Positions 151 to 37,032 of a stretch of DNA of 37,032 nt are shown here, in pieces; positions within the stretch are counted from its first letter, which is position 1; each line of letters begins with the position of its first letter. Where the stretch lies: the IMG/VR virus record IMGVR_UViG_2700989496_000004; one strand, written 5' to 3'. A program made the translations under genes and the position numbers. The notes beneath the pieces are model-generated. The model searched no databases, was not told the origin of the DNA, and saw only the letters and a program-made list of their open reading frames with translations. The DNA is from a virus (Duplodnaviria; Heunggongvirae; Uroviricota; Caudoviricetes).

Positions 151-228
151 TGATGCGCCGCGCGATAAATGCACTCTATCTTGTGCGATAAATGGCATCC
201 ACGCGGCGTTTCATTATTTGAAAAAGAA
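151..228. repeat. Prophage terminus (gin-proximal end) with putative transposase-binding repeats
   Basis: Starts 5'-TGATGCGCCGCGCGATAAATG, resembling the Mu R-end TGAAGCGGCGCACGAAAAAC as recalled. GCGATAAATG occurs twice (162-171 and 185-194), 23 bp apart, just outside the gin stop. Confidence 0.5.
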
Positions 229-801
229 TTACATTTCAGGTTGCGTTATGACAGTCCCAACAGGGTGATAGCGGTAGATCGTTGACAGTCCAATATCATA
301 GATAATTGCCAGCCGCTTTCTGTCATACCCTTTCTGGAGCAATCTTGCGATCTGCTCATGCTGCTCCTTCGTCAGTTTCGGGCGACGTCCTCCAACTCTT
401 CCTTGTGCTCGCGCAGCAGCCAGTCCAGCCAGCGTGCGCTCAACTATCAGTTCACGCTCCATTTCTGCCAGTGCACCCATCATATGAAAAAAGAACCTTC
501 CCATCGGAGTGCTGGTATCGATTGAATCCGTCAGACTGCGAAAATTGACACCTTTTGCGCGTAGCTCTTCTGTGAGAGCAATGAGGTGTTTCATTCTTCT
601 ACCCAACCGATCCAGCTTCCAGACCACCAATGTATCCCCTCTTTTAAGGCACTTTAAAGCGCGTTTCAGGCCTGGTCGTTCCGACTTGGTTCCGCTCATT
701 TTGTCCTCAAAAATCTGTTCACATCCTGCGCACATTAATGCATTGCGTTGCAAATCTGTGTTTTGGTCATTTGTTGACACACGTATGTAGCCAATCAGCA
801 T
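229..801 (-). CDS. gin: Serine DNA invertase, Gin/Hin/Pin/Cin family
   Basis: Protein begins MLIGYIRVSTNDQNTDLQRNAL, close to Mu Gin as recalled, about 190 aa. AAGGGAG lies 8 nt upstream of the ATG at 799-801. The 233-aa track ORF carries an unlikely N-terminal extension. Confidence 0.93.
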   Translation of the reverse strand: MLIGYIRVSTNDQNTDLQRNALMCAGCEQIFEDKMSGTKSERPGLKRALKCLKRGDTLVVWKLDRLGRRMKHLIALTEELRAKGVNFRSLTDSIDTSTPMGRFFFHMMGALAEMERELIVERTLAGLAAARAQGRVGGRRPKLTKEQHEQIARLLQKGYDRKRLAIIYDIGLSTIYRYHPVGTVITQPEM

Positions 802-857
802 TAAAAATACTCCCTTTTGAGTGGTTAAAGTACTGAGATAATGTGGGGAGGATTTGA

Positions 858-885
858 GAGATAAACGTTGGTTTGGGGGAAGGCT
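858..885. repeat. cix/gix-like crossover site 1
   Basis: Reverse complement reads CCTTCCCCCAAACCAACGTTTATCTC. It sits at the 5' edge of the conserved fibre segment shared by all three cassettes. Boundaries approximate. Confidence 0.55.
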
Positions 886-1301
886 CGGCGCTGCCCGTTG
901 GTGTACCTGTTCCGTGGCCCACTGCCACACCGCCAGCAGGCTGGTTAAAGTGCGACGGGCGCGCCTTTACAAAAGAACAATATCCTGTTCTGGCCAGAGT
1001 CTACCCGACCCTCCGTCTTCCCGATTTACGCGGTGAGTTTATCCGTGGATGGGACGACGGGCGAAAAGTGGATACAGGGCGCGATCTGCTTTCACGGCAG
1101 GATGGTACAAGTTTTTCTCATTACGCAGGTAATTTTGACATTGGGTCTGGTCATTCAATCAATAACTATGACCAAATCGTTGACAACCAACCTGGATTCT
1201 CCCGTTTTTCATTTGCAGGTCCTTCGCGAGGCGATGGGGTTAATTATGTGACCATTCGTCCCCGTAACATTGCGTTTAATTACATCGTAAGGGCGGCATA
1301 G
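873..1301 (+). CDS. Silent alternative tail-fibre C-terminal cassette 1 (no own start or promoter)
   Basis: First ~70 codons (GEGSALPVGVPVPWPTATPPAGWLKCDGRAFTKEQYPVLARVYPTLRLPDLRGEFIRGWDDGRKVDTGR) are identical to an internal segment of the expressed fibre 2394-3731. The tail then diverges and ends ...RPRNIAFNYIVRAA. Confidence 0.75.
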   Translation: MGEGSALPVGVPVPWPTATPPAGWLKCDGRAFTKEQYPVLARVYPTLRLPDLRGEFIRGWDDGRKVDTGRDLLSRQDGTSFSHYAGNFDIGSGHSINNYDQIVDNQPGFSRFSFAGPSRGDGVNYVTIRPRNIAFNYIVRAA

Positions 1302-1325
1302 AAACGTTGGTTTGGGGGAAGGCTC
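1298..1325. repeat. cix/gix-like crossover site 2
   Basis: AAACGTTGGTTTGGGGGAAGGCTC repeated at 1302-1325, same orientation as site 1. Boundaries approximate. Confidence 0.55.
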
Positions 1326-1773
1326 TGCATTGCCTGTTGGTGTACCGGTTCCATGGCCCACCGCCACACCGCCAGCAGGCTGGTTACAGTGCAACGGAGC
1401 TACGTTCACCAAAGAACAATATCCTGTTCTGGTCAGAGTCTACCCGACCCTCCGTCTTCCCGATTTGCGCGGTGAGTTTATCCGTGGATGGGACGGTGGT
1501 CGCAAGGTTGATACCGGGCGTGCGCTACTTTCATTTCAGGAAGGGACTATCGTATCCGGTTTTGATGATAATGATACCGGAGATATCAGTTCGCTCGGCT
1601 CTACACAATACGGATTTGGTGACGCTTTAACCTCTAATCAACTGGGGGTCTTAAATGGCAAAAAGTGGATATTTGATGCATCCTCTAAAGGTGCACAAAG
1701 ATATGACTGGTGGGCTTATGTATCAGCTCGCCCCCGCAATATCGCATTTAACTATATCGTGAGGGCGGCGTGA
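1312..1773 (+). CDS. Silent alternative tail-fibre C-terminal cassette 2
   Basis: Begins GEGSALPVGVPVPWPTATPPAGWLQCNGATFTKEQYPVLVRVYPTLRLPDLRGEFIRGW, then a distinct tip ending ...RPRNIAFNYIVRAA. No start codon of its own. Confidence 0.75.
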   Translation: MGEGSALPVGVPVPWPTATPPAGWLQCNGATFTKEQYPVLVRVYPTLRLPDLRGEFIRGWDGGRKVDTGRALLSFQEGTIVSGFDDNDTGDISSLGSTQYGFGDALTSNQLGVLNGKKWIFDASSKGAQRYDWWAYVSARPRNIAFNYIVRAA

Positions 1774-1779: not shown

Positions 1780-2394
1780 TCAGCCGGCAAGCGCCAGTGG
1801 CGCTTCCGGCCAGCTGATTTCAGGTGCCTTGCTGATATCCAGTGCGTTCAGCTCGTCGATATAATCCAGCACGGCGTTCAGTTTTGCCGTTTCTTCTGGT
1901 TTCAGACTGCGACCAGCACGCAGTTTGAGGTTGATAAGATCGACGGACGCCATCGCCTGTTTCACCCGTTGCTGGCGTTGCTGTCTGGCAACCTCCAGTT
2001 CTGCGGCTCGCTGCCGTTCAGTATCGGTTACCCACGCCTCACCGTTCCAGGTATCCCATGGCGTGGCTGGCTGTTTTGTGGTGGTGTCCGCCGGGTAATC
2101 ACCCGGTTGGGTAATCAGAACGGGGTTACCGTTCTCCGTGCTGTATACCGTCTCGCCGCGGTGATCAGGCACATGCTCCCACCCGTTCAGCGTGGCAGTC
2201 CGGCAAACCACGTAACCCGAAATTGCTTCCGGCGGTGCATCGGCGCACGAATGTGCCGGAGTACCCACCCCAAGGGCGAGATACTCCACAGAGGATGAGG
2301 TGTATTCCCGGGTTTCCTCGTCATAGTGATATACAGTGATATCGCCCGCTACAGTGGCGATACCGTTTTCATCCAGAACTGCAGTGTTACTCAT
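1780..2394 (-). CDS. Tail fibre assembly protein (Tfa, Mu U-like)
   Basis: 204 aa immediately downstream of the fibre gene, start overlapping the fibre stop. Call rests on position and recalled Tfa-like character. Confidence 0.7.
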   Translation of the reverse strand: MSNTAVLDENGIATVAGDITVYHYDEETREYTSSSVEYLALGVGTPAHSCADAPPEAISGYVVCRTATLNGWEHVPDHRGETVYSTENGNPVLITQPGDYPADTTTKQPATPWDTWNGEAWVTDTERQRAAELEVARQQRQQRVKQAMASVDLINLKLRAGRSLKPEETAKLNAVLDYIDELNALDISKAPEISWPEAPLALAG

Positions 2395-3731
2395 TAAACT
2401 GCCCTCACAATGTAATTAAGTGCAATGCTACGGGGTCTGACAGTGATACCCTTCGCATACCCGCTTCTGATAGAGGTCAGAATAGTAGCCTGCATACCAT
2501 TGTCTGACATTGCCACGACAGGATCGCTGAATGTTGTCCCGTCCGGCATTTTAAAGCTGCCCTCACGAAGGTCTGTAATGGAATCTTCATTGTTGAATCC
2601 CATGCCGACTATCCCCGAGGTTCCCGTAGTGTCCTGGTTATAATAATCCAGCATTGCTGTTCTTAACAGCGTTGCCCCTTGTGCGGACAGCAACTTACGT
2701 CCTGTATCAACTTTGCGCCCGTCGTCCCATCCACGGATAAACTCACCGCGTAAATCGGGAAGACGGAGGGTCGGGTAGACTCTGGCCAGAACAGGATATT
2801 GTTCTTTTGTAAAGGCGCGCCCGTCGCACTTTAACCAGCCTGCTGGCGGTGTGGCGGTGGGCCACGGAACAGGCACACCAACGGGTAGCGCCGAGCCTTC
2901 TCCTAAACCAAGGTAATTGAGGACATCTTTTATACTGCCCTTAGCGATAATAGCGCGACCAATAGCTGTAAGGGTTGCCAGCTCTGCGCGGTCTGCTCCG
3001 GTAAAATAAGGCAACCGATCTGCTGCAGTGGCAAGTCCTGCCAGAGCAGTGAGCGTGGCATCTGCCGGTTGTTTTCCGTTTGCCAGATCGTATGCAGCCT
3101 TGACCGCTTTCGGTGTGGCGGCCAGTATTTCAGACGTGCTGTTGATGGCACTGCTCAATTGTACGGTGCCTTTTGCCGTCAGCGAGGCAGCAGGCACTCC
3201 CGTTATCTGACTCCACGGGTGAGTGTGGCTGACGGGCGCCTTGCCGGCTGCAAGGTCGTATGCAGCCTTGACCGCCTTCGGCGTGGCAGCCTCAGTTTCT
3301 GATTGACTGTCCGTGGCGCTGCTCAGTTGTACGGTGCCTTTTGCCGTCAGTGAAGCCGCAGGCACTCCCGTTATCTGACTCCACGGGTGAGTGTGGCTGG
3401 CAGGCGCCTTGCCGGCTGCCAGGTCGTATGCAGCCTTGACCGCTTTTGGTGTGGCGGCCAGCGTTTCAGAGGTGCTGTTGGTGGCACTGCTCAGTTGGGT
3501 GAACCCCTTAGCTGTCAGTGTCGCGTCCGGGTGGTTACGGGAACGTACGTGTTCAGCCAGTGACTGTGCGGCTTCCTCCGTTTTCTTCTTCAGCCATTTC
3601 GTCCTGTTTGCCAGTTGCCGGGGGGCTCGATTTGATATCCCGTCTGCACCACCCAGAACCGGATCTGATGTCTCCAGTTGATAGATATTTTCTTCCCACT
3701 TTTCTGTTTCATTCAGGTTTCCCATAATCAA
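2394..3731 (-). CDS. Tail fibre protein (constant N-terminal part plus currently expressed variable tip)
   Basis: 445 aa with three ~55-aa tandem repeats (TAKG..QLSSA..S.SE..AATPKAVKAAYDLAAGK...HTHPWSQITGVPAASL) followed by the conserved crossover segment and a tip ending ...RPRSIALNYIVRAV. Start overlaps the stop of the upstream gene. Confidence 0.88.
   Translation of the reverse strand: MIMGNLNETEKWEENIYQLETSDPVLGGADGISNRAPRQLANRTKWLKKKTEEAAQSLAEHVRSRNHPDATLTAKGFTQLSSATNSTSETLAATPKAVKAAYDLAAGKAPASHTHPWSQITGVPAASLTAKGTVQLSSATDSQSETEAATPKAVKAAYDLAAGKAPVSHTHPWSQITGVPAASLTAKGTVQLSSAINSTSEILAATPKAVKAAYDLANGKQPADATLTALAGLATAADRLPYFTGADRAELATLTAIGRAIIAKGSIKDVLNYLGLGEGSALPVGVPVPWPTATPPAGWLKCDGRAFTKEQYPVLARVYPTLRLPDLRGEFIRGWDDGRKVDTGRKLLSAQGATLLRTAMLDYYNQDTTGTSGIVGMGFNNEDSITDLREGSFKMPDGTTFSDPVVAMSDNGMQATILTSIRSGYAKGITVRPRSIALNYIVRAV
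2893..2920. repeat. cix/gix-like crossover site 3 (inverted relative to sites 1 and 2, inside the expressed fibre gene)
   Basis: Minus strand reads ACCTTGGTTTAGGAGAAGGCTCGGCG..., i.e. TTCTCCTAAACC-AA-GGT on the complement. Homology to cassettes 1 and 2 begins here. Boundaries approximate. Confidence 0.55.
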
Positions 3732-5402: not shown

Positions 5403-5740
5403 AGCAGCTCCTGAGTCCGGGTCTGTCCGTCTGAGCCTTTCCAGCTCACCCGGAGCGTAAGATGTTCGCCGTCGACGGCGGGTTTAACTGACATAAGCTG
5501 GCAGCGGGGCTCCCAGCGCCGGATGGCATCGACGGATTCGCGCACCACATGCGGAATGGCCCGGTCTACAGGCCAGTCGATATAAAGATGCAGATTGCTG
5601 CCGAACTCCGGGCGATGCGGGTCGCTGCCGCGGGGAGTCCGCAGGATAATTTGAATCGCCTGCCGGATATCATCCAGCCCCCGGACAATTTCGCCGGGAG
5701 CCTGCAGGGCTGGTTGCCAGAATACTGAGGTTGTTTTCAT
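5393..5740 (-). CDS. Baseplate wedge protein, gpW/gp25-like
   Basis: 115 aa, size and position typical of GPW/gp25 family. Confidence 0.7.
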   Translation of the reverse strand: MKTTSVFWQPALQAPGEIVRGLDDIRQAIQIILRTPRGSDPHRPEFGSNLHLYIDWPVDRAIPHVVRESVDAIRRWEPRCQLMSVKPAVDGEHLTLRVSWKGSDGQTRTQELLWR

Positions 5741-5794
5741 GGGGGCAGTATTGCCCCCGTGCGGGAACGCTGATATTAAAGGCGTTTAAAAAGC

Positions 5795-8626: not shown

Positions 8627-11577
8627 CAGCGGTACTCCTTACGTTGTTTCTGAGCCAGCAGACGCTCCAGCATTTTTTCCAGCTCATGCAGACTCATATT
8701 CAGGGCACCAGTCAGTCCTGCAGGCGCTGTGGTTTCCCTGCCATTGAGGAAAAACTGAGGATTAAAGCTGACCTGGATACCACCAGACGTTCCACCGCCG
8801 GTTGCAGCTGCACCACGGCCTGAATATCCGGCAGCCAGGATTTCAGGCGAGGGGATACGGGGAACATCCGGTGTCATCTCATTTGCCAGACGTTGCCCTG
8901 GTAAAATCGATGCCCGGGTGGAGAGCGGAATAGCGGGCATGGAAGACAAACTATTGATTACGGCTCCGATCGCATTTTTAGCAGACGACATAAACCCATT
9001 GATATCGGGCAACGGCATACTGAAGCGAACACCTGAAGTGTTATCCCGTATTTCTGGCCCCTGAATGCTCACGGGCATTCTGGGGAGCAGTTCACTGGCC
9101 ATTCGCTGCCCGGCCAGAGCTGCAAGCGGAGTGGTCCGCTGCAGGCCAATGGCGGCCCCCTGCGCGATATTGTCACCAAAGCCCATAAACACGCGGCTCG
9201 GCGAATGAATGCCCAGCTTTTCGCTGAACCAGCCACTGATGCTGTCGCCCATTCCGGTTACACTGGATTTGAGCGACTCCCATTTGTTTTTGATACCGTT
9301 AATCAGACCATCGACAAGATGGCCACCGAAGTCGGTAAACTTTGCCGGCAGATCAACACCAAGATATTTCAGCGCAGCTGCAAAGGCTTTATAGAGCAGA
9401 CCTGCCGGCGACCAGTTAATCAGCAGCTTACCAGTTCCCGCGATACCGCCGTTAAAGGCTTCCTGAATGTCAGCCCAGCATTGTTTAAACCAGCTACTGA
9501 TGCTGTCACCCATTCCGGTTACACTGGATTTGAGCGACCCCCATTTGTTTTTGATACCGTTAATCAAACCGTCGATAAGATGGCCACCGAAGTCGGTGAA
9601 CTTTGCCGGCAGAGTAACGCCGAAATATTTCAGCGCAGCCGCAAAGGCTTTATAGAGCAGGCCTGCCGGCGACCAGTTAATCAGCAGCTTACCAGTTCCC
9701 GCGATACCGCCGTTAAAGGCTTCCTGAATGTCAGCCCAGCGCTGTTTAAACCAGCCACTGACTGCCCCCCAGTTGCGGTAGATAAGGTAAGCTGCTGCCG
9801 CGACAGCGGTGATAACGAGACCGATGGGATTCATCATCAGCGCTCGCCCAATCCAGAGAACGGCACGTGCAGCGCTCATAAAACCGCGAACGAGGCTGCC
9901 CGCCAGAACTTTGCTGAGTTTCAGTCCTCCGCTGGTCAGTCGGCTGAATCCAGTGACAAGCCAGCGTAATTTGCCACCTTCTCCGAGTGCGGTAGTCAGT
10001 CGATGCCAGTTGGTCCGGAGTAAAACAGCAGTTTTCCAGACGTTCACAAAGGGGGAAATAAGGAGATTCAGCCCCAGTTTGAGACCAACAGTCGCTATCT
10101 TAATCGCAAGGAGCGCACTGATGAGCTTAAAAGCCCCACTGACAAATTGCGGGTGAGTCGCCACCCAGTGTTTTGTCCCCTGAATGAGTGGGAGCAAGTC
10201 CTGAGTCAGAGAAATAAAAGATGGAGCTAATTGATCGCCCAGCGTAATTGCCAGATCGCGACTGCTGACCATAAGTGTTTTAGTGGCTTCAAGGGGAGAT
10301 TTCAGCCGCTGATCATAAGCACTGGCAAGCAAATCGTTATCCGCAGCCCTGAGAGCACCGGCACGGATCTCTCGATATCTGTCCATGTTGGCCAGCATCG
10401 GGCGGATAAATGCCATGACCTGCATATCCGCGAACATATCGCCCAGACCAAAGTTTTTCGCCAGAGCCTGAAGTGCCTCATCTCTTGCCGTATCATTCTT
10501 TATTTTCATGGCTGATTTGAAGCCGGCCAGCGCTTCGGGGCTTTTGGCATTGAGGTAACGTTCTATAACACTCAACATCCCTTCAATCGGAGAGATCCCC
10601 GCAGCTTTATAACTCGCAATAGATCCCTGCAAATCAATACCCAGATCAGCAAACTGTTTCTGAGTATCGCGGGCAAAAATTTTGGTAAGAAAGTTTTTAA
10701 AATTATTGGCTGCTTCGTCGGTGGAACCTGCACCGATTTTTGCTATCTGGAGACTGGCCCCGATTTCAGCAACAGCCTCTTTTCCACTGGCAATACCCGC
10801 CATCATTGGGGCCAGGGACTGCATCCACTTGACCTGATCCGGGATTTCAAATGACCCCTGGTCACCGGCATAAGCCATAATATTCTGAACGGCACCAAAA
10901 TCTCTGGCCGCGCCTTTCAGGGAGTTTTGCCAGACTGCGGCCACTTTTGCCCAGTCCTGAGCAGACGTGCGTGTTGCCGTTGCCGCGCGGGCAATATCCG
11001 GCATCAGAAAACCGATATCTGACACATTATCAATATTGTCGCTGATGAGTGAACCCATCGCCTCCTGCAGCTCATCCTGATACTGATTGTATTTAAGCGC
11101 CCAGCCTTTTATCTGTCCGGCAAGTGCATCCCGCGTTTTATTGTCATATTTTGCGGTGATCGACATATCAATCATTTTGTCCTGAAAAGACATGGACTGC
11201 TGAACGGCAGGGGAAACCGTATGATAAACAGTCTGTGCCATGCCATACGCTTCAATCCCCTGACCATACAGCGCCATGCGGTTAGCTTTCAGCGCATCAC
11301 TGGTAGCGGATGCCGCTGACAGACGGCGCTGCTGGCGCTCAATTTGCTCCATGGTGCGGCTTACCCGCAGCAGCTCGCTGTTGAGATGCTGCATCCGGGA
11401 AGAACCCAGTTGACCATAACGTTCTGTTGCACGGGTTAAAGCGTTCTGACGTTCCTGCAGGCGGCGTGAGGTATCGCTCAGGGAATCAAGCGCACGGCGG
11501 GTACCGCTCATTGCAGAACGGAATGTGCTGCCAATCATCCCGCCGATAACAACGCCGACTGAAAACTGTCCCGACAT
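8626..11577 (-). CDS. Tail tape measure protein
   Basis: 983 aa, hydrophobic/Gly-rich segments, internal 86-aa tandem duplication, located after the chaperone pair and before baseplate genes. Confidence 0.9.
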   Translation of the reverse strand: MSGQFSVGVVIGGMIGSTFRSAMSGTRRALDSLSDTSRRLQERQNALTRATERYGQLGSSRMQHLNSELLRVSRTMEQIERQQRRLSAASATSDALKANRMALYGQGIEAYGMAQTVYHTVSPAVQQSMSFQDKMIDMSITAKYDNKTRDALAGQIKGWALKYNQYQDELQEAMGSLISDNIDNVSDIGFLMPDIARAATATRTSAQDWAKVAAVWQNSLKGAARDFGAVQNIMAYAGDQGSFEIPDQVKWMQSLAPMMAGIASGKEAVAEIGASLQIAKIGAGSTDEAANNFKNFLTKIFARDTQKQFADLGIDLQGSIASYKAAGISPIEGMLSVIERYLNAKSPEALAGFKSAMKIKNDTARDEALQALAKNFGLGDMFADMQVMAFIRPMLANMDRYREIRAGALRAADNDLLASAYDQRLKSPLEATKTLMVSSRDLAITLGDQLAPSFISLTQDLLPLIQGTKHWVATHPQFVSGAFKLISALLAIKIATVGLKLGLNLLISPFVNVWKTAVLLRTNWHRLTTALGEGGKLRWLVTGFSRLTSGGLKLSKVLAGSLVRGFMSAARAVLWIGRALMMNPIGLVITAVAAAAYLIYRNWGAVSGWFKQRWADIQEAFNGGIAGTGKLLINWSPAGLLYKAFAAALKYFGVTLPAKFTDFGGHLIDGLINGIKNKWGSLKSSVTGMGDSISSWFKQCWADIQEAFNGGIAGTGKLLINWSPAGLLYKAFAAALKYLGVDLPAKFTDFGGHLVDGLINGIKNKWESLKSSVTGMGDSISGWFSEKLGIHSPSRVFMGFGDNIAQGAAIGLQRTTPLAALAGQRMASELLPRMPVSIQGPEIRDNTSGVRFSMPLPDINGFMSSAKNAIGAVINSLSSMPAIPLSTRASILPGQRLANEMTPDVPRIPSPEILAAGYSGRGAAATGGGTSGGIQVSFNPQFFLNGRETTAPAGLTGALNMSLHELEKMLERLLAQKQRKEYR
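9229..9744. repeat. 258-bp tandem duplication (2 copies plus the start of a third) inside the tape measure gene
   Basis: aaccagcc/tactgatgctgtc...cccattccggttacactggatttgagcga recurs with a 258-bp period. The encoded 86-aa units differ at about 6 residues. Confidence 0.85.
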
Positions 11578-28337: not shown

Positions 28338-28354
28338 AAAAGTGAATCTCTATC

Positions 28355-28430: not shown

Positions 28431-28619
28431 ATGACTGCAGAACAAGTCAAAGCTCTCTTCCGCCAGCGCGGGATCACTTTCACCCGCTGGGCAGAAGAAA
28501 ACGGCTACAACCGCAATGAGGTATACCGCGTTCTCAACGGGCAGACCAAAGCCCGTTACGGTAAATCCCATGAAATCGCCGTGAAGTTGGGACTGAAATC
28601 AACAGCTCAGGCGGCCTAA
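28431..28619 (+). CDS. Small Cro/Ner-like DNA-binding protein (first early gene)
   Basis: 62 aa with AAGGAGA 5 nt upstream, positioned as cro/ner relative to the repressor. Confidence 0.6.
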   Translation: MTAEQVKALFRQRGITFTRWAEENGYNRNEVYRVLNGQTKARYGKSHEIAVKLGLKSTAQAA

Positions 28620-28671
28620 ATATTTTGAGTCTTTGTAAAAGGTTATCACATATCGCAAAAGAGGTATGCAG

Positions 28672-28980
28672 ATGAGTAAGACGAATGTTTCAAGCTCCGG
28701 CAGTCGCATCCTCCGGGTACTCAAAGCGCTGCGCGGTCATGCCCTGAACGGTATTTCTAACGGTGAACTGGCGACAGCACTGCACGAGTCACCGGCAAAC
28801 ATCAACCGGGCACTCAACACCCTCATTGAAGAAGGGCTGGCTCTGAAACTGGAGAACGGACGTTTTGCACCGGGCATCCAGTTACTGCAGATCGCCATGG
28901 CCCACAGTAACGAGATGGCACGTGCACAGGATCGTATTAACGAAATTAACCAACGTGTCATTTCAGGTAGTCGTTTGTAA
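28672..28980 (+). CDS. Putative winged-helix DNA-binding protein
   Basis: About 102 aa, start at the second ATG, which has better spacing from AAGAGG. Sequence ILRVLKALRGHALNGISNGELATALHESPANINRALNTLIEEGLA is wHTH-like. Confidence 0.5.
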   Translation: MSKTNVSSSGSRILRVLKALRGHALNGISNGELATALHESPANINRALNTLIEEGLALKLENGRFAPGIQLLQIAMAHSNEMARAQDRINEINQRVISGSRL

Positions 28981-28990
28981 GGAGTAATCA

Positions 28991-29911
28991 ATGGGACGTA
29001 CCAAATCACCGATTAACACTGAACTGAACGCCGATGTACCGCTGTCGGATGATCTCAACGTCAGCCTGAATGCCATGACACAGCATCGCATGGAGATCAT
29101 GCAGCAGTTTGGTGATGGACTGCCTTATGAACGTGAACGCATCGTTCACGAAGCACGTTTTTATATGGCGCAGAGTGCTGAATCTATGTTGGAAGCGGGT
29201 AAGCGGCTGATCATCTTAAAAGAAAATGAACCGCATGGTGATTTCACAAATATTCTGGAAAACGACCTCGGATTAGCACCACAGGTAGCTCGTCGCATGA
29301 TGCAGGCCAGCGTGAAATTTCTCGGCAATGGAGATGAACAGCCAAAACGCTCAGCGCTGAGCGTTTTGGGAAAAACCAAGTTATATGAACTGATGGTTCT
29401 GGATGACGAAGAACTCGACGCATTAGCTGATGGTGGAACCGTCGCCGGTGCAACGCTTGATGATATTGATCGCATGACCAGCCGCGAACTGAAGGCCGCC
29501 CTGCGTGAAGCGCGCGAAACCAACGCAGCTCAGCAACAGGTGCTTGCCGGAAAGGACGAAAAAATCAACGAACTGGCCACAAAACTGGAGAAGAAATCGC
29601 GCCTGCAACCTCCGCCGCCAGACGAAGAACTGAAAAAATTGCGGGCGGAAGTGACGGCATTAGCGGTTGAGGCCGAATCGGCTATCGCCGTCCGGCTGTC
29701 CAGTGTTTTTGAGACCCTGTGTGAATACTGCACCAAAAACATGATCGATACCCCCAGAGATTTCATGGCCGGTCTGGTCTGCCAGATTGAACGCAGTGTT
29801 CATGCATTACGTGAGACGTTTGACCTTGAGGCCGCTCCATCGGGTAACGATGCCCCCGCCTGGCTGACCGAACCGGAACCTGAAATCAACCGACCGGAGG
29901 ATATGCAGTAA
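28991..29911 (+). CDS. Hypothetical early protein
   Basis: 306 aa, acidic and helical, in the early operon. Confidence 0.5.
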   Translation: MGRTKSPINTELNADVPLSDDLNVSLNAMTQHRMEIMQQFGDGLPYERERIVHEARFYMAQSAESMLEAGKRLIILKENEPHGDFTNILENDLGLAPQVARRMMQASVKFLGNGDEQPKRSALSVLGKTKLYELMVLDDEELDALADGGTVAGATLDDIDRMTSRELKAALREARETNAAQQQVLAGKDEKINELATKLEKKSRLQPPPPDEELKKLRAEVTALAVEAESAIAVRLSSVFETLCEYCTKNMIDTPRDFMAGLVCQIERSVHALRETFDLEAAPSGNDAPAWLTEPEPEINRPEDMQ

Positions 29912-30228
29912 TGAATACGAATAACACACAAAATACCCTGATGGACAGCCCGGAGGCACTGGGGCACGCACTGTGTAATCTGCTGCCGGAGATGGTGCAG
30001 GGTTTCCGCGTGGTGACCCCTTCCGGTGAAATCTGCGTACCCGCACAGGAGACGCACCCGTTTGTACTGACGATGGAGGTGATGCTGATGCAGCAGATAA
30101 GACGTCTGCAGAATCAGTCAGCATTACGCCCGGTAGTTGCACCGCAACCGGTAAATACCGTGGTGAAAACCTGCGATGGCGAAACACTGTGCGACCTCGC
30201 CAGAAAAATTGCCGCCAGAATCGGATAA
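29911..30228 (+). CDS. Hypothetical early protein
   Basis: 105 aa, start overlaps the upstream stop. Confidence 0.45.
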   Translation: MNTNNTQNTLMDSPEALGHALCNLLPEMVQGFRVVTPSGEICVPAQETHPFVLTMEVMLMQQIRRLQNQSALRPVVAPQPVNTVVKTCDGETLCDLARKIAARIG

Positions 30229-30243
30229 CAGGGAAGACAAGCT

Positions 30244-32013
30244 ATGACCCCGGCACTGACTGAAAAACTGGTTGAAACAGCCCGCGCGGCACGTGACGCG
30301 GGGCATGGTAAACGCGGTGCAATATACGACGCTGCCTGTGCTGAACTTGGCATGTCCCGCGCCACTCTGCTGCGCAGGCTGAAGGAGGTATCTGTGACTG
30401 ATAAACGCAAAAAACGCGCCGATGCCGGGCGCAGCGCCCTGACCCGCGACGAAGCCGCGCTGATATCTGCCACACTGCGTGAGGCCACCCGCAAGAACGG
30501 TAAGCGTCTCTATTCCATCGCAGATGCAGTGGAAACCCTGCGGGCTAACGGCTTTATCACCGCAGGCAGAACAGATGAAACCACCAGTGAGTTTTTCCCG
30601 TTGTCTGAAGATGCCATCAGCCGTGCTCTGCGTAACTATGGCCTGCACCCGGAACAACTGGATGCCCCTGCACCACATACCGAAGTGGCCAGTCTGCATC
30701 CCAATCATGTCTGGCAGATTGACGCCTCACTCTGCACGCTTTACTACCTGAGCAATGGACATAAAGGGCTGCAGGTGATGGACAGCGCGAAGTTCTACAA
30801 GAACAAGCCCGCTAACCTTGCCCGTATCGCCAGTGACCGCGTGTGGAGTTACGAGATTACCGACCATGCCAGCGGCTGGATTTACGTTGAGTATGTGACG
30901 GGCGCGGAATCAGGTGAGAACCTGTGTTCTGTGCTTATCAACGCCATGCAGGAGCGTGGCGGCGCAGACGTGCTGCACGGCGTGCCGAAAATACTCTATC
31001 TCGACCCCGGCTCGGCAAACACCGCGGGTATGACGAAAAACATGTGCCGCTCACTGGGCATCGACCTGATAGCGCACAAGCCGCATAACGCCCGCGCCAC
31101 CGGACAGGTGGAAAAGGCGCGTGACATTATCGAACGCAAGCTGGAGCCGGGTCTGAAGTTCCGGCCGGTTCACAGTCTGGAAGAACTCAACGCGCTGGCC
31201 GCGAAATGGCGCAGCCACTTTAACGCCACGGCTGTTCACAGCCGCCACGGTAAAACCCGCACGGATATCTGGCTGAAGATTACTGCTGAGCAGCTGAAAA
31301 AAGCGCCTTCCGTTGAGGTATGTCGTGAACTGGCTGTGGCGGCACCAGAACTCCGCAAAGTCACGCCAAAACTTCGTGTCTCGTTCCGGGGCACTGAATT
31401 TGACGTATCAACGGTACCGGGCGTACTGGTTGGTGAAAAACTGATGATTACCCGTAACCCATGGCGCAGCGATGTGGCACAGGTGGTTCTGACCGGTGAG
31501 GACGGCCACGAGACGTTCTTCCTGGTCGAAGAGGTCAGAAAGAACGAGTTTGGCTTTGCTGAAGGCGCGGCGGTATTTGGCGAAAGTTACAAAGCCCTGC
31601 CGGAAACCCCGGCACAGATGGCGGCAAAAGAAACCGAAGCGCTGGTTACCGGTACAGACAACGCCGCAGATGCAGCCGCCGCACGCAAGGCGAAGGCGCT
31701 GCCGTTCGGCGGGCGGCTTGACCCGTATAAACATATCGACGACACCACACTTCCGGCCTATATGCCGAAGCGTGGTCAGGCCTCTGACGTACGCGGGCCG
31801 CGCACTGAACAACGTCCCATGACTCATGTGGAGGCCGCGAAAGCCCTGCGCGATAAGTTCAGCGCCGACGGCCTTACCTGGACGCCGGAACATTACCGCC
31901 AGTTAACGGCACAGTACCCGGACGGCGTACCGGAAGCCGCACTGGATGAAGTCATGGCCACGCTGACCACACCGGCCCGCAGCAGTGTTATCAGCATTGT
32001 TAACGGCAACTGA
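30244..32013 (+). CDS. DDE transposase (Mu A-like)
   Basis: 589 aa with candidate DDE residues in WQIDAS, LYLDPGS and GQVEKARD, directly upstream of the MuB-like ATPase. Confidence 0.8.
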   Translation: MTPALTEKLVETARAARDAGHGKRGAIYDAACAELGMSRATLLRRLKEVSVTDKRKKRADAGRSALTRDEAALISATLREATRKNGKRLYSIADAVETLRANGFITAGRTDETTSEFFPLSEDAISRALRNYGLHPEQLDAPAPHTEVASLHPNHVWQIDASLCTLYYLSNGHKGLQVMDSAKFYKNKPANLARIASDRVWSYEITDHASGWIYVEYVTGAESGENLCSVLINAMQERGGADVLHGVPKILYLDPGSANTAGMTKNMCRSLGIDLIAHKPHNARATGQVEKARDIIERKLEPGLKFRPVHSLEELNALAAKWRSHFNATAVHSRHGKTRTDIWLKITAEQLKKAPSVEVCRELAVAAPELRKVTPKLRVSFRGTEFDVSTVPGVLVGEKLMITRNPWRSDVAQVVLTGEDGHETFFLVEEVRKNEFGFAEGAAVFGESYKALPETPAQMAAKETEALVTGTDNAADAAAARKAKALPFGGRLDPYKHIDDTTLPAYMPKRGQASDVRGPRTEQRPMTHVEAAKALRDKFSADGLTWTPEHYRQLTAQYPDGVPEAALDEVMATLTTPARSSVISIVNGN

Positions 32014-32023
32014 GGAGGGAAAC

Positions 32024-33190
32024 ATGCTGGTACTGAAGCAGCAACTGAAAGAGGCCCGTATTCCACAGGCGGTGGTGGCGAGAGCTGTCGATGTTTCTGA
32101 GGCCACGCTGGCCCAGATTGTGAATCATAACGCGTGGCCCCGCACCAGCCCCGGAGAAGTGCGCCGGCGTCTTGCGTCCTGGCTGGAAAGTCAGGGGATT
32201 GATACAACGAAGAGTTTTGATGCTGTACAGGGCGCGGCCACGCCCCGTACAGCGGGTACCACAGATAAAACGAGCCTCAGTGAGGAAGAGAATATGTTAC
32301 TCAAAAAACAGGTGTTATTTCCAGCAACCAAAAAAGCGTTTGGTCTTTTCCGTGACCCGTTCGCCGACGAAGCCATGCAGGGTTCTGATGATGTGTTCAC
32401 CACCCCGGACATTCGCTACGTGCGTGAGGCGCTGTACCAGACAGCCCGTCATGGTGGGTTTATGGCCGTCATCGGTGAGTCCGGTGCGGGTAAATCCACG
32501 CTGCGCCGCGACCTGACTGAACGTATCAACCGCGAGAATGCGCCGGTAATTGTTATCGAGCCATACATCATCGCTATGGAAGACAACGATGTGAAAGGGA
32601 AAACCCTGAAGGCAGCAGCTATTGCCGAAGCCATTATCAGTACCATCGCACCACTGGAAAGCATCAGACGCAGTCAGGACGCCCGTTTTCGCCAGTTGCA
32701 TCGCGTCCTGAAAGACAGCAGCCAGGCGGGGTTCAGCCACGTTCTGGTGATTGAGGAGGCCCACAGTCTGCCCATTCCGACACTGAAACACCTCAAACGC
32801 TTTTTTGAGCTGGAGTCCGGTTTCAAAAAACTGCTGTCCATCGTGCTGATTGGCCAGCCGGAACTGGCGACAAAACTGTCTGAACGCAATATGGAAGTCC
32901 GTGAAGTCGTTCAGCGCTGTGAGGTGGTCGAACTTCTGCCTCTGGACAATAACCTTGAAGAATTTCTGACGTTCAAACTGCAACGGGCCGGTAAACAGCT
33001 GACGGACATTATGGACGCCGGTGCAGTGGATGCCATACGTGCCCGCCTGAGCAATCCGGGAAGTCACCGTAAAAATATGGTCAGCCTGCTGTATCCGCTG
33101 GCCGTCAGTAACCTGGTAATAGCCGCCATGAATCTGGCCGCTGAAATCGGGGTTCCACAGGTCAACGCTGACGTTGTCAAAGGGGTTTAA
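32024..33190 (+). CDS. Transposition ATPase (Mu B-like AAA+)
   Basis: Walker A GESGAGKST and Walker B VLVIEEAH. Start at ATG 32024 after GGAGG; the track ORF includes a 13-aa upstream extension. Confidence 0.8.
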   Translation: MLVLKQQLKEARIPQAVVARAVDVSEATLAQIVNHNAWPRTSPGEVRRRLASWLESQGIDTTKSFDAVQGAATPRTAGTTDKTSLSEEENMLLKKQVLFPATKKAFGLFRDPFADEAMQGSDDVFTTPDIRYVREALYQTARHGGFMAVIGESGAGKSTLRRDLTERINRENAPVIVIEPYIIAMEDNDVKGKTLKAAAIAEAIISTIAPLESIRRSQDARFRQLHRVLKDSSQAGFSHVLVIEEAHSLPIPTLKHLKRFFELESGFKKLLSIVLIGQPELATKLSERNMEVREVVQRCEVVELLPLDNNLEEFLTFKLQRAGKQLTDIMDAGAVDAIRARLSNPGSHRKNMVSLLYPLAVSNLVIAAMNLAAEIGVPQVNADVVKGV

Positions 33191-33192
33191 TA

Positions 33193-33462
33193 ATGAAATC
33201 CACCACAGGTATCAACCAGCAAATCAGCAAAGTGCAGTCAGCCATTATGGCGCTTAAGGCGACGAACACGGATGTACAAAGCATCACCATCAGGGGTAAC
33301 AAACCTGTCATCCGCGTTTCCCGGAGTGCGCATTGCATGCGCATGCTTGAGCAGGGAAAGGCCTGTTATCTGTATACCGGACATGACCACAGGGGATATT
33401 TCCGTCAGGGCGTTTTCGAACTGCACGGCTGTCGCGTCGTGTGGCCGGAATCTTTGTGGTAA
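33193..33462 (+). CDS. Hypothetical early protein
   Basis: 89 aa, tightly following the MuB-like gene. Confidence 0.45.
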   Translation: MKSTTGINQQISKVQSAIMALKATNTDVQSITIRGNKPVIRVSRSAHCMRMLEQGKACYLYTGHDHRGYFRQGVFELHGCRVVWPESLW

Positions 33463-33489
33463 TCAGCACAACTGGAGAAATCATAAAAA

Positions 33490-34020
33490 ATGGCAAAAAG
33501 TACAAAAGGTGCAAAACGTATCAAGGCCGCAGCAGCACTCTGGGTGCCGGGGACACGTGAAGAGGTCATTGAGGGAATCAGACTACTCGGTGACGCACAA
33601 CGTGAACTGGTCAGGGCTGAAACAGAAATGAATGACGCCATTGGCGATATCACCGCACGTTATGCCCCGCTCACCGAGAGCCTGAAAAAACGCATGGCCG
33701 AACTGCAGTCCGGTATTCAGACATGGTGTGAGGCACACCGTGATGAACTGACCGGCAACGGGAAGGTGAAGTTCGCTAACCTCACCACCGGCGAGGTGCA
33801 GTGGCGAAACCGTCCGCCATCAGTCAGTATCCGTGGGGCGGATAATGTTATTGAATTACTGAGACGTCTGGGGCTTGAGCGCTTTATTCGTGTAAAAGAG
33901 GAAATAAATAAAGACGCTATCCTGAATGAAAAAGAGGCCGTGAAAAATATTCCCGGTATTTCCATTAAAAGCGACATTGAGGATTTTTCAATAATTCCTT
34001 TTGAGCAGGATGTGCAGTAA
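33490..34020 (+). CDS. gam: Gam-like host-nuclease inhibitor (DNA end-binding)
   Basis: 176 aa, MAKSTKGAKRIKAAAALWVPGTREEV... resembles Mu Gam as recalled. Position after A and B. Confidence 0.7.
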   Translation: MAKSTKGAKRIKAAAALWVPGTREEVIEGIRLLGDAQRELVRAETEMNDAIGDITARYAPLTESLKKRMAELQSGIQTWCEAHRDELTGNGKVKFANLTTGEVQWRNRPPSVSIRGADNVIELLRRLGLERFIRVKEEINKDAILNEKEAVKNIPGISIKSDIEDFSIIPFEQDVQ

Positions 34021-34117
34021 ACACACCACGTTAATTATTTAATAAAAACATTTTCTTTTTTATTCCGACGTCAGCGCCGCGGGCTTCTGCACGCCGGAAA
34101 CAGAGGAGAATTAAATC

Positions 34118-34312
34118 ATGATATTTAAATGTATTCAGTGCGAGAGGGATATAACAGCCCTGCGTTTTCACAGCGCCATCGCCGTGATGTCCGGTAAATA
34201 CCACATCCCTGCGGTACGCGTCACCCTGGTCTGCCCGTACTGCAGCCAGCATTTTTCGGCAGACGTGCCCGTCATGGAATTCTCCCGCCCTGACAGGGAG
34301 GACTCGCAATGA
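34118..34312 (+). CDS. Zinc-ribbon small protein
   Basis: 64 aa with CxxC (C5, C8) and CxxC (C39, C42) pairs. Confidence 0.5.
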   Translation: MIFKCIQCERDITALRFHSAIAVMSGKYHIPAVRVTLVCPYCSQHFSADVPVMEFSRPDREDSQ

Positions 34313-34581
34313 TTACCCCACAGGAAGCACGACAGCGCACCCGAACCCTTGTTGAACACTATGTCAACGAGTGTGAATGCCGCGACCTCACCGATGTGAA
34401 GCACGTCCTGACGGCGCTAATCAGCATGGCCACACAGGCCATTGTGGCGACCAACGGAAAGGAGGCTGCCCTGCAGGTACTGATGAACACACTCACCCAC
34501 ACGGCAGAGCATGAGGTGCCGTACCGGATGGAAACCACTGCAGAAGGCGGCCTGCACATCACCGTCAGCCGGAAGCACTGA
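34309..34581 (+). CDS. Hypothetical early protein
   Basis: 90 aa, start overlaps the upstream stop. Confidence 0.45.
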   Translation: MITPQEARQRTRTLVEHYVNECECRDLTDVKHVLTALISMATQAIVATNGKEAALQVLMNTLTHTAEHEVPYRMETTAEGGLHITVSRKH

Positions 34582-34590
34582 GGGCGCGGC

Positions 34591-34887
34591 ATGACACGAA
34601 ACACCGAACTCACCCGCACCGCCCTCTACCGTCTGGCCCTGCAGCGTTTCGGGCCGGACGCACAGGCCCTGAAACTGGCAGAAGAGGCCGCTGAACTGGC
34701 GGCCAGTGCCGCCCGCAACCTGAACGGACAGGGCAGCGAAAGTGACCTCGCGGCAGAGCTGGCAGACGTGGAAATCATGACAGAGCAACTGCGCCTTCAG
34801 GGGATGGACCGGCTGATTGACTTCCACAAACAGAAAAAACTGGAACGTCTGGCTGCACGACTGGGCGTGATTTACACGAACGAGTAA
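34591..34887 (+). CDS. Small helical protein, possibly MazG-like
   Basis: 98 aa with KLAEEAAELAASAARNL...AAELADVEIMTEQL, a pattern reminiscent of MazG-type all-alpha NTP pyrophosphohydrolases. Weak assignment. Confidence 0.35.
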   Translation: MTRNTELTRTALYRLALQRFGPDAQALKLAEEAAELAASAARNLNGQGSESDLAAELADVEIMTEQLRLQGMDRLIDFHKQKKLERLAARLGVIYTNE

Positions 34888-34901
34888 CCGGGAGGCATTC
34901 A

Positions 34902-35117
34902 ATGGCTGACATACTCAGGGAAATCACCGCATGGACACTGATTCTTACTGGCCTGGCGACATGCCTCAGTGCGGGGGCAGCCCTGGCTGCCCTGCTGATG
35001 CACATAACAACACAGTGGTTATGGGAAAAGCTTAAAGCAGCATACAGCCTGAAAGAGCTGTCCGACGCTGTCCGGGCATGGAAACGGCAGAAAAATACCG
35101 GAGATACAGAACAATGA
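34902..35117 (+). CDS. Small membrane protein
   Basis: 71 aa with a hydrophobic N-terminal segment (ITAWTLILTGLATCLSAGAALAALLM). Confidence 0.45.
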   Translation: MADILREITAWTLILTGLATCLSAGAALAALLMHITTQWLWEKLKAAYSLKELSDAVRAWKRQKNTGDTEQ

Positions 35118-35797
35118 CAGACCAGAATAAACACATTGAGAAACTGAAAAAGTTGCTGGCGCTGGCCGCATCCGGCAACCCGCACGAGGCCGCTCTGGCA
35201 CTGCGCCGAGCCCGTAAACTGATGGATGTTCACGGCATCACACATTCCGACATTGCTATGAGTGATATTGATGAAACCATCAGTCACTACTGGCCGACAG
35301 GCAGTCTCCGTCCACCGCGCTACATGCTGGGCCTGATGAACATCATCCGCGAGGTATTTGGTGTTAACTCCATCATTCACCCCGGCACGCATCCGTCTGT
35401 GGGGTTCTACGGCAACCGGGAACGTGCGGCACTGGCTGCATACACCTGGGAAGTGCTGGCCCGTCAGCTGAAAAAGGCGCGTCAGCAGTATATCAGTGCA
35501 CAGAACAAAAGAATAAAAACCGCCACCCGCACCAGCCGTGGAGACCAGTTTGCCGAAGGCTGGGTGCTGGCCGTTATCAGTGAAATACAGTCCTTTGCCC
35601 TGACCGATGATGAGCGTGAACTGATGCAGCAGTGGCTGGAACATAAATACCCGCAGACGCAAACCACCAGGGCGCGTAAACCGGGAAGAAGCCGCAATGG
35701 CGACGCCTCGCGCTATGCGGGGTTTCGTGAAGGGCAGAACGTCAGACTGCACCGCCCGGTCAGTGGGCAGGAACAACAGAAACTGGAGGCCAGATGA
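35114..35797 (+). CDS. Conserved phage early protein (DUF2786-like)
   Basis: Start at ATG 35114 (MTDQNKHIEKLKKLLALAASGNPHEAALALRRARKLM...), overlapping the upstream stop (ATGA). Confidence 0.5.
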   Translation: MTDQNKHIEKLKKLLALAASGNPHEAALALRRARKLMDVHGITHSDIAMSDIDETISHYWPTGSLRPPRYMLGLMNIIREVFGVNSIIHPGTHPSVGFYGNRERAALAAYTWEVLARQLKKARQQYISAQNKRIKTATRTSRGDQFAEGWVLAVISEIQSFALTDDERELMQQWLEHKYPQTQTTRARKPGRSRNGDASRYAGFREGQNVRLHRPVSGQEQQKLEAR

Positions 35798-36024
35798 TTA
35801 CGCTATCAGGTAAAAGCCGGAAATTAAAAGCCTGCCGAATATCTGCCAGATACCTTTTTGCCCGCGCCTTTTTTAAGAACGTCAGGCCGGGGATCACAAT
35901 TGGTGTTATTGCCGGACGCGAACAGGTTGAAAAATACATGTCAGGTGCATGGTGGAATAACGACCCTGTCATTGCTGCCCGTAATATTCATATCGAATGG
36001 GGAGGTATTCAGAATGACTACTGA
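35794..36024 (+). CDS. Hypothetical small protein
   Basis: 76 aa, overlapping start and stop with neighbours. Confidence 0.4.
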   Translation: MITLSGKSRKLKACRISARYLFARAFFKNVRPGITIGVIAGREQVEKYMSGAWWNNDPVIAARNIHIEWGGIQNDY

Positions 36025-36220
36025 AACCATTGTCTGTTTTCTTTTCTGGTATATGTACGCAGGATCATGCAGCGCAAGACTTCATCGTTCCCTGGGCTAT
36101 GGCAGGCACTACGACACCGCGCATTACATCCTGTACATGACCGCCGTCATGTTGTTCTGGCCAGTCACCCTGCCAGCTGCAACCGACATTGTTGCCGACA
36201 GACTGAAAAAAAGGAGATGA
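36014..36220 (+). CDS. Small membrane protein
   Basis: 68 aa from an internal Met (MTTETIVCFLFWYMYAGSC...), GGAGG 9 nt upstream, two hydrophobic segments. Confidence 0.4.
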   Translation: MTTETIVCFLFWYMYAGSCSARLHRSLGYGRHYDTAHYILYMTAVMLFWPVTLPAATDIVADRLKKRR

Positions 36221-36221
36221 T

Positions 36222-36671
36222 ATGCAGAAAAAACGCCTGATACAGCTTATCCATATTGCCCGTAATGAACTGGGTATGGATGAAGACACCTACCGCCAGA
36301 TGTTACAGGGGCTGACCGGTAAAGCCTCAACCAAAGGAATGGATACCACACAACTAAACTGCGTGCTGGAATCCATGAAAAAGAAAGGCTTTCGCGTTAA
36401 ACCAGCCAGAAAAGCCAGCTCCGGTTTACCGCTTGATAACCATCCGCAGTCCAGGAAAATTCGTGCGCTATGGCTTGAAATGGCTGCTGCCGGCATTGTT
36501 CGTGACCGTTCAGAAAATGCATTAGCGAGGTGGATCAAGCGGGAAACGGGCATCAGCGCCCTGCGCTGGCTCAGTACTGAACAGGCAAGCAGTGTTATTG
36601 AGAAACTGAAGAAGTGGCAGCGCAGAGCTGCGGGAGTCAAACATGAGCGACCTGAATCAGTTTCGAAGTAA
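36222..36671 (+). CDS. GemA-like protein (Mu gp16, DUF1018-type)
   Basis: 149 aa, N-terminus MQKKRLIQLIHIARNELGMDEDTYRQMLQGLTGK resembles the gp16/GemA family as recalled. AGGAGA ribosome-binding site. Confidence 0.6.
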   Translation: MQKKRLIQLIHIARNELGMDEDTYRQMLQGLTGKASTKGMDTTQLNCVLESMKKKGFRVKPARKASSGLPLDNHPQSRKIRALWLEMAAAGIVRDRSENALARWIKRETGISALRWLSTEQASSVIEKLKKWQRRAAGVKHERPESVSK

Positions 36672-37032
36672 GGGGCCGGAACTCCTGGTGGAACTGGCAC
36701 AGCATACCTCTGAGACCGTTCGCGAGATTATTGATATTGAGCCCGAAGTTGCCGACCAGATTGGTCAGGCCGTCGCGAACCGAATGATGCAGGTCTGGGG
36801 CGGGCAAAACGTTTATTTCCCGATGGGCATGGTATGGAAGGTCAGTCAGCGCGACCGGGAAATCTTCAGGGAGTTTAACGGACGCAACCACCACGAACTG
36901 GCCCGCAAATTTGGTGTTTCGCTTCAGTGGGTCTACAGCGTGGTTAAGCGGGTAAGAAAAGAAGAACTGGATCGGATGCAGGGCAAGCTATTTGCTGATG
37001 AACCCGATGCAGATACGGAGAAAAAAGAGTAA
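36643..37032 (+). CDS. Mor/C-family transcriptional activator (middle/late operon regulator)
   Basis: 129 aa; C-terminal FNGRNHHELARKFGVSLQWVYSVVKRVRK resembles Mu Mor/C HTH as recalled. Window ends at its stop codon. Confidence 0.65.
   Translation: MSDLNQFRSKGPELLVELAQHTSETVREIIDIEPEVADQIGQAVANRMMQVWGGQNVYFPMGMVWKVSQRDREIFREFNGRNHHELARKFGVSLQWVYSVVKRVRKEELDRMQGKLFADEPDADTEKKE

Follow-up and report, generated by a model that had tools for sequence, protein, structure and literature searches.

A divergent BcepMu-type transposable prophage and the predicted Mor-dependent promoters of its late arm

The IMG/VR record IMGVR_UViG_2700989496_000004 is a stretch of 37,032 nucleotides from a tailed phage (Caudoviricetes), here called the window, which carries Mu-related genes in an order which is not that of Mu. 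Its early and late genes form two divergent arms, and its only gene for an activator of the Mor/C family closes the early arm and points away from the late genes that such an activator would be expected to switch on. Does the window hold one phage or two, and how can the late genes be controlled from so far away? The answer proposed here, which is held with high but not complete confidence, is that positions 151-37032 are nearly all of one 37,045-bp prophage of the BcepMu type, that divergent arms are normal in phages of this type, and that Mor fires the late promoters in trans, in a cascade of two tiers.

One transposable unit with two divergent arms

A first reading of the letters, referred to below as the original prediction, had described a two-arm layout unlike that of Mu, and the list of open reading frames (ORFs) and the Pfam and PHROG scans bear it out. 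The early genes, from a ner-like gene to mor, do occupy the plus strand from 28431 to 37032 (ORF list and Pfam), while lysis, head and tail genes occupy the minus strand from 25456 to 1780 (Pfam and PHROG). The genes expected between the arms are a cI-type repressor, a Dam methylase and three genes which have no assigned function. Mor is indeed remote from the first late gene and faces away from it, its start being 11,187 bp from that of the holin gene. The picture of Mu with which this layout was contrasted is also right: the Mu genome (NC_000929) is indeed co-linear and runs from c on the left to gin on the right.

The layout itself is that of a known phage. A tblastn comparison of 55 window ORFs with the genomes of BcepMu, KP12 and Mu showed that 37 of them match BcepMu, with 31–76% amino acid identity and in strict mirror order, starting with Mor (gp1), at the very end of the genome, and reaching the tail protein gp51. 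The mention of a BcepMu-like group with a divergent layout was accurate: the BcepMu genome (NC_005882) has the mirror-image order, with Mor facing outward. What has to be corrected in the original prediction is only the significance given to this layout, which is the norm of a known phage group and not an oddity.

The ends of the element were set in a prophage of E. coli O25b:H4 (L002), inserted between aroA and ycaL, which is colinear base for base with positions 151-37032 of the window (1209 mismatches over 36,882 nt, the first one at 875, in the tail-fibre/invertible region). Comparison with the empty site of K-12 places its left end at the base equivalent to window position 151 (5'-TGATGCGCC...) and its right end (...TCTAATCA-3') 163 bp past the Mor stop codon. 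The second prophage end therefore lies past 37032, as had been expected, and the window contains all of the prophage but its last 163 bp, positions 1-150 being flanking DNA. The entire 37,045 bp, with termini TG...CA, is surrounded in L002 by a 6-bp target duplication, GAAGAA. In a second, independent insertion (L007), which splits eamA, the duplication TTGGAC surrounds the whole element. The left junction is at the identical base in the two copies, and the left end adjoins many different host genes across genomes.

The left end of the prophage (151-200, plus strand) starts with 5'-TG and contains two GCGATAAATG boxes (GATAAATG at 164-171 and 187-194), which are likely to be transposase-binding subsites. 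The right end, as read in L002, is an imperfect inverted copy of the left one (TGAT-N8-GAGATAAATG...). The TG...CA ends and the short target duplication suggest a lifestyle based on replicative transposition. A tRNA scan of the window found none, which argues against tRNA-linked integration.

The P2-like character of the tail genes, as opposed to the Mu-like early genes, and a GC content that falls to 0.46–0.52 at 26–29 kb could suggest that two elements are adjacent, a remnant of a prophage with P2-like tail and head genes and a separate Mu-like element, with a boundary at about 25.5–28.4 kb. The single 6-bp duplication that flanks the entire 37 kb in two independent insertions is enough to refute this. 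The second Mu-type end which two elements would need near 27900 is missing as well: the end motif GATAAATG is absent from 10413 to the end of the window, central region included, and position 27871-27895 is occupied by a terminator-like hairpin instead. Moreover, the same mosaic is the packaged genome of BcepMu, and the arrangement recurs in 45 loci from other genera. The probability left to the two-element reading is negligible.

These 45 related loci come from other species of beta- and gamma-proteobacteria (Enterobacterales, Burkholderia, Chromobacterium, Zoogloea and Dechloromonas), including Erwinia, Pantoea, Photorhabdus, Xenorhabdus, Pectobacterium and Dickeya. In all of them the late genes are on one strand. 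The opposite strand carries the ner gene in 26 of 26 cases, the IclR-type helix-turn-helix (HTH) gene in 26 of 26, the DUF3102 gene in 22 of 23 and the transposase homologues in 3 of 3. This recurrence also bears on the idea of an assembly chimera at 25500-28400, or of a strain-specific inversion of a formerly Mu-like, co-linear prophage. Nothing but the unfamiliar layout, and the presence of an invertase gene at 229-801, speaks for such an event. The arrangement is contiguous in closed genomes, L002 being colinear over 36,882 nt, and the same layout is found in L007, in BcepMu and in the 45 relatives; the partial records of phages PhiKM and KP12 keep the same gene order as far as they are covered. 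In addition, the inverted repeats that the Gin invertase could use are confined to 865-2914. A chimera or an inversion is thus extremely improbable. The readings that involve two elements, a chimera or a local inversion were all rejected, on the grounds of the target duplications, the lack of an end motif in the centre and the recurrence in 45 loci.

The element is therefore read here as a BcepMu-type transposable prophage, single and intact. Copies of it are frequent in E. coli, ST131-type genomes among them: 640 of 5426 complete E. coli genomes have a match to the right 4 kb of the window. For annotation purposes, its exact boundaries are position 151 on the left and 163 bp past the window on the right.

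Several observations concern the surroundings of these ends. Positions 1-150 (plus strand) lie in an IS66-family transposase gene, of which they encode the beginning of the DDE domain (Pfam DDE_Tnp_IS66, E 5e-15, positions 1-46 of the profile), and match mobile-element genes of other records at 100%. This gene is cut directly by the TG end of the prophage, which shows that this copy transposed into an IS element; the IS66/prophage junction of the window was found in no complete E. coli genome of the collection. In ST131-type genomes, the prophage lies 8 nt inside the ycaL coding sequence, its early operon reads toward ycaL, and RefSeq re-annotates ycaL with a start within the phage end. The right end appears to be a site of cargo-gene gain: L007, from a chicken E. 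coli isolate, has about 1 kb with two additional genes between mor and the right end (37328-38450), and KP12 has an additional ORF after its Mor-like gene.

Predicted Mor-dependent late promoters

The last gene of the early arm (36643-37032, plus strand) encodes a 129-aa protein in which the Pfam Mor domain is matched from end to end (PF08765, E 1.3e-43, all 107 positions of the profile). It is the sole Mor/C ORF of the window and it matches Mu Mor (54.3 bits) and Mu C (53.9 bits) equally. No C-type activator had been noticed beside the lysis genes, and tblastn searches of the window with Mu Mor, Mu C, BcepMu gp1 and the window's own Mor agree with this: there is no second Mor/C-family ORF in any frame, the next-best match having an E-value of 0.5 or worse.

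Alignment of the four intergenic gaps of the late arm reveals a shared element, TAA-N6-TTAA, followed after 23 nt by a hexamer NANNCT. The pattern TAA-N6-TTAA-N23-NANNCT has four matches in the window, all on the late strand and one per late-arm intergenic gap, compared to none in 100 shuffles. In the Mu genome, the same pattern has exactly one match, at 9175-9216, and this is the Mor-dependent middle promoter Pm. Published work describes the Pm type of promoter as a 16-bp dyad (5-bp arms and a G/C-rich 6-nt spacer) centred at −43.5, with a −10 hexamer and without a −35 hexamer (PMC4390567, PMC4287176). The numbering of the Mu match was checked against these data. Placing TATCCT at −13 to −8 puts a top-strand A at −12, −4, −1, +1, +3 and +4, which are the permanganate-sensitive positions of Pm as published, and puts AGTAA-AGCCGG-TTAAT at −51 to −36, with its centre at −43.5, where the dyad was reported (PMC4287176, PMC4390567). 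All four late-arm sites have this Pm-type geometry. Sites of the Mu C type (TTAT-N6-ATAA, as at Pmom) were considered as a model of the late sites and rejected: it is the Pm geometry that fits, and the pattern matches no C-dependent promoter of Mu.

The four predicted promoters are all on the minus strand. Plys (25482-25523) has the −10 hexamer GATGCT and a predicted start at about 25474, 18 nt before the ATG of the holin gene. PI (18015-18056) is upstream of the head protease/scaffold gene (ATG 17984), with a predicted start at about 18007. A predicted tail promoter (12098-12139) precedes the tail chaperone/tape-measure operon (ATG 12070) and would start at about 12090. The predicted starts of these three (25474, 18007 and 12090) are 18–23 nt 5' of the start codons of the holin, protease and tail-chaperone genes. 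The fourth, a predicted baseplate promoter (5747-5788), lies upstream of the baseplate gene W, whose ATG (5740) begins 7 nt after the −10-like hexamer; the predicted start is at about 5739.

These sites are conserved. The KP12 sequence has four equivalent matches to the same pattern, one for each of the promoters. In BcepMu, a relaxed version of the pattern gives three sites, upstream of gp21, gp32 and gp49, which are the equivalents of Plys, PI and the baseplate promoter, respectively. In the 45 relatives, in which three of the four late-arm positions fell within the fetched flanks, the relaxed pattern has 113 late-strand matches, compared to about 3 expected. They cluster at three positions, with 37 sites equivalent to Plys, 40 to PI and 34 to the tail chaperone/tape-measure promoter, and they represent 93 distinct sequences. 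All three sites are present in 29 of the 35 full-length related loci.

The following cascade is proposed. In the lysogen, the cI-type repressor (27981-28337) would keep the early promoter Pe shut by means of an 18-bp palindromic operator. Upon induction, Pe would drive a single rightward operon of 8.6 kb toward the right end, whose last gene encodes the only activator of the Mor/C family. Mor would then diffuse to at least four promoters on the opposite strand, which have no −35 element, and bind there the TAA-N6-TTAA dyads, whose centre is at about −43.5. These four would serve the lysis and packaging genes, the head and proximal tail genes, the tape-measure group and the baseplate and fibre genes, and a fifth probably serves dam. 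There would be two tiers (early and late) in place of the three of Mu (early, then Mor, then C and late). Mor thus probably activates the late operons directly and in trans, given the geometry and the conservation of the sites. As a diffusible activator acting in this way, it could be encoded at any distance and in any orientation without consequence, and its remote, outward position is not a problem.

One may suppose instead that the layout is indeed of the BcepMu type, and that the late arm is fired not by Mor itself but by a second activator which plays the part of C and has escaped recognition, for instance the product of one of two central genes (242 aa and 71 aa) or the HTH protein of the IclR type, or by another factor that binds the dyads. 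The dyad of Plys also fits a promoter directed toward the 242-aa gene, so that a Mor-dependent "middle" transcript of the central genes is conceivable, and several early and central proteins have no assigned function. But KP12 and BcepMu keep the late sites and have none of the 242-aa, 134-aa and 71-aa central genes. Moreover, the sites reproduce exactly the dyad of Mor and Pm, its spacing and the placement of the −10 hexamer, and they pick out Pm alone in Mu; no second Mor/C homologue was found in the window. A separate late activator is therefore unlikely.

The direct action of Mor on the late operons remains the preferred reading, and some points weigh against it and against the BcepMu-type assignment that goes with it. 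The promoters of this phage are predicted from their geometry and conservation. The pattern had its origin in the four gaps of the window itself, and its independent support consists of the single match at Pm in Mu and the recurrence in distant relatives. A fourth BcepMu site, upstream of gp41, is a poor fit. Lastly, BcepMu is not close at the nucleotide level (it aligns to 49% of the best-conserved 8 kb, with 68.7% identity), which on nucleotide criteria makes the genus label Bcepmuvirus doubtful, but not the relationship to the group. All considered, it seems somewhat probable that, across the BcepMu group, a sole Mor/C protein, whose gene is at the outward-facing end of the early operon, directly fires four to six dispersed late promoters through dyads of the Pm type, in a two-tier cascade without C. 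No description of these late sites was found in the searchable literature, which did not extend to the original BcepMu paper (Summer et al. 2004). Late promoters of the Pm type, present throughout the family, would be a modest and testable addition to what is known of these phages. If it is true, the prediction explains how the late arm is controlled by a remote mor gene that faces outward, and it suggests that the relay from Mor to C is an elaboration specific to the lineage of Mu.

Three side observations concern the sites themselves. The start codon of gpW follows the −10-like hexamer by 7 nt in BcepMu (30775-30825) as it does in the window (5738-5788), and the gpW transcript, which would begin at or next to the AUG, may be leaderless. 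The dyad of Plys (25510-25553) is symmetric and also fits the promoter pattern on the opposite strand, toward the 242-aa gene. Opposite-strand matches of this kind are seen in the relatives L014, L015, L019-L024, L027, L031, L034 and L052, and in the Photorhabdus and Xenorhabdus relatives dam comes directly next on this strand; the Mor box before the holin gene may thus be bidirectional. Lastly, a weaker candidate for a Mor-type site, which matches the relaxed pattern, lies upstream of the Dam methylase gene (26914-26955, plus strand), and a similar dyad is found upstream of dam in KP12. If it is of the Mor type, this site would be the counterpart of the activator-dependent mom promoter of Mu.

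Gene content of the arms, the centre and the invertible segment

The early arm (28431-37032, plus strand) is colinear with BcepMu gp16 to gp1. It begins with the gene of a ner/cro-like HTH protein (28431-28619; ORF list and Pfam), followed by those of an HTH_IclR protein (28666-28980), a DUF3102 protein (28991-29911), a transposase (30244-32013) in which Pfam recognizes the rve domain only, and an AAA_22 ATPase (32024-33190). The Gam (33490-34020, Pfam E 1e-40) and GemA (36222-36671, Pfam E 8e-41) genes are separated by small genes and a DUF2786 gene, and GemA is followed by Mor.

The repressor gene is on the minus strand (27981-28337) and its product matches Pfam HTH_3 (E 5e-15) and Phage_CI_repr. 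It occupies the position of BcepMu gp17, to which tblastn gives no sequence match; recognizable homologues are found in 10 of the 45 related loci, all in the same orientation. The hairpin mentioned above (27871-27895, minus strand) is a strong terminator-like structure with a T-run, downstream of the repressor gene. The candidate early promoter Pe (28355-28383, plus strand) consists of TTGATA and AATAAT separated by 17 nt, and its spacer is filled by an 18-bp perfect palindrome, TGCTCATAATTATGAGCA (28361-28378), which is likely to be the operator.

The central accessory region (25587-27864) contains a 242-aa gene on the plus strand, a 134-aa gene on the minus strand, a 71-aa gene on the plus strand and the Dam methylase gene (plus strand, end at 27864; Pfam MethyltransfD12, E 9e-29). 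The genes other than dam belong to PHROGs of unknown function. A PADLOC scan of the central accessory genes gave nothing beyond methyltransferase models, and the PHROG scan yielded no further function for them.

The late arm (1780-25456, minus strand) is colinear with BcepMu gp21-gp52, and its lysis cassette, Mu-type head genes, P2-type contractile tail genes and tail fibre gene were identified with Pfam and PHROG. The genes of a holin (25106-25456) and an SLT endolysin (24363-25103) are followed, on the same strand and in this order, by those of a spanin, the small terminase subunit (TerS, Mu gp27), TerL, the Mu portal, Mu F, G, the protease and the capsid. After the capsid come the sheath, the tube, the tape measure and gpU, X, D, V, W, J and I of a P2-type tail, then the tail fibre (2394-3731) and fibre assembly (1780-2394) genes, all on the minus strand. 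The head and tail matches in Pfam include Phage_Mu_Gp27, Portal_Mu, Phage_Mu_F, Phage_tube (FII), GPD, GPW and Baseplate_J.

A palindrome (18121-18154, core CTTTATAAAG at 18132-18141) lies in the gap that separates the G-like gene from the protease gene, about 48% of the way along the genome. In 37 of 40 relatives it is found upstream of the PI site, at no more than 170 nt, and it is also present in BcepMu (about 18735-18770); it is kept across a range that extends from Enterobacterales to Burkholderia and Zoogloea, and the sequence around it diverges. The strong gyrase site of Mu is in the same gene interval, and by analogy the palindrome might serve a genome-centre function like that of this site.

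A serine invertase similar to Gin is encoded at 229-801 (minus strand; Pfam Resolvase and HTH_7; 77% amino acid identity to Mu Gin), next to an invertible tail-fibre segment (865-2914). This segment contains two 229-nt inverted repeats (865-1093 and 1304-1532), and their partner, to which they are 94% and 85% complementary, is part of the tail-fibre gene (2686-2914). Two alternative C-terminal tail-fibre cassettes, which are silent, are located at 873-1301 and 1312-1773. The presence of Gin and of three copies of the 229-nt repeat, with two silent cassettes and one expressed gene, implies a three-way invertible switch of the host range.

Comparison with related phages, BcepMu, Mu and KS10

Sequence databases already contain this same phage: Escherichia phage PhiKM (PQ738613), which GenBank files under Bcepmuvirus, has 100% identity to the window over the regions that it covers, its record being partial, permuted and interrupted by a sequencing gap. 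The identity to Klebsiella phage KP12 clone KP12_2 (OM835952) and to Escherichia phage Phi06_2974 B is 83–88%. Both have the same gene order and the same four promoter sites; KP12 is a partial record in which the central accessory genes differ, and the records of Phi06_2974 B, of 28.5 and 5.6 kb, are also partial. OM835952 is labelled Vequintavirinae, yet its sequence is that of a BcepMu-type prophage, and was probably co-assembled with a lytic phage.

The divergent architecture, being the normal layout of the BcepMu group of Mu-like myoviruses, was already known. It is reportedly described in the paper of Summer et al. 2004 (J Mol Biol 340:49), with BcepMu in two gene clusters. The genome sizes are similar (37.0 kb for this phage and 36.7 kb for BcepMu) and both genomes have TG...CA ends. 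In the early arm, both have Mor, GemA, the ATPase, the rve transposase, DUF3102, HTH and ner-like genes, with the repressor in the centre; in the late arm, both have the holin, SLT endolysin and spanin, the Mu-type TerS, TerL, portal, F and G, the protease, the capsid, the P2-type tail and the fibre. Dyads of the Mor type also precede the corresponding late genes in BcepMu.

Lavigne et al. 2009 (PMC2771037) described BcepMu as having two gene clusters with lysogeny control at their interface, a transposase of the Tn552/IS1604 type, a P2-like tail and no tail-fibre inversion system. The phage of the window corresponds to the definition of the BcepMu-like group given there, with two divergent clusters and the lysogeny-control genes at the interface (PMC2771037). 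Its rve transposase, of the Tn552/IS1604 type, has 68% amino acid identity to gp9, and its ExeA-like AAA ATPase 59% to gp8. Its head genes (terminase, portal and F) are of the Mu type and are combined with a tail cassette of the P2 type, and it has TG...CA termini, many insertion sites and a short target duplication (6 bp, at two sites here). It differs from BcepMu in that it has the Mu-type Gin and the invertible tail-fibre segment, which BcepMu lacks, and adds the Mu-type Gam (62% to Mu) and the Dam methylase to the BcepMu set; it is devoid of the terminal acyltransferase gp53 and of gp3-gp6. Other named relatives of BcepMu are phiE255 and vB_CB2b.

Whether this phage belongs to the genus Bcepmuvirus in the strict sense is another matter. 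In ICTV practice, the threshold for a genus is about 70% nucleotide identity over the whole genome. The phage of the window falls short of the identity of at least about 70% over the genome that a strict genus Bcepmuvirus implies, and BcepMu gives no megablast match. By this nucleotide criterion it is more aptly placed in a genus of its own, inside the same group, the relationship to the group being secure.

The resemblance to Mu is more limited. Only about 11 ORFs match it, which encode Gin (77%), Gam (62%), TerL (49%), F (47%), GemA (36%), Mor (30%), the portal, G, baseplate J and the tail fibre, the last over a short N-terminal stretch. In both phages mor is the last gene of a long early operon, and several dispersed late promoters without a −35 element depend, or here would depend, on an activator; the dyad and spacing of the sites are those of Mu Pm. 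On the contrary, Mu is co-linear with its repressor at the left end and this phage is divergent; Mu has two activators, Mor and then C, and this phage has one. Mu A and MuB give no tblastn match to the rve and AAA_22 proteins, which are not homologous to them, and the tail module is P2-like and not Mu-like. The target duplication is 6 bp in this phage and 5 bp in Mu. The co-linear order, Mu A and MuB, and the pair of Mor and C, which would place the phage with Muvirus, are therefore all missing.

A third arrangement is known from Burkholderia phage KS10, in which about 17 kb are inverted relative to Mu, and integration and regulation genes interrupt the head module (PMC2628397). KS10, compared here through its published description, is a transposable phage arranged differently from that of the window, and its inversion indicates that the orientation of modules is variable among Mu-like phages.

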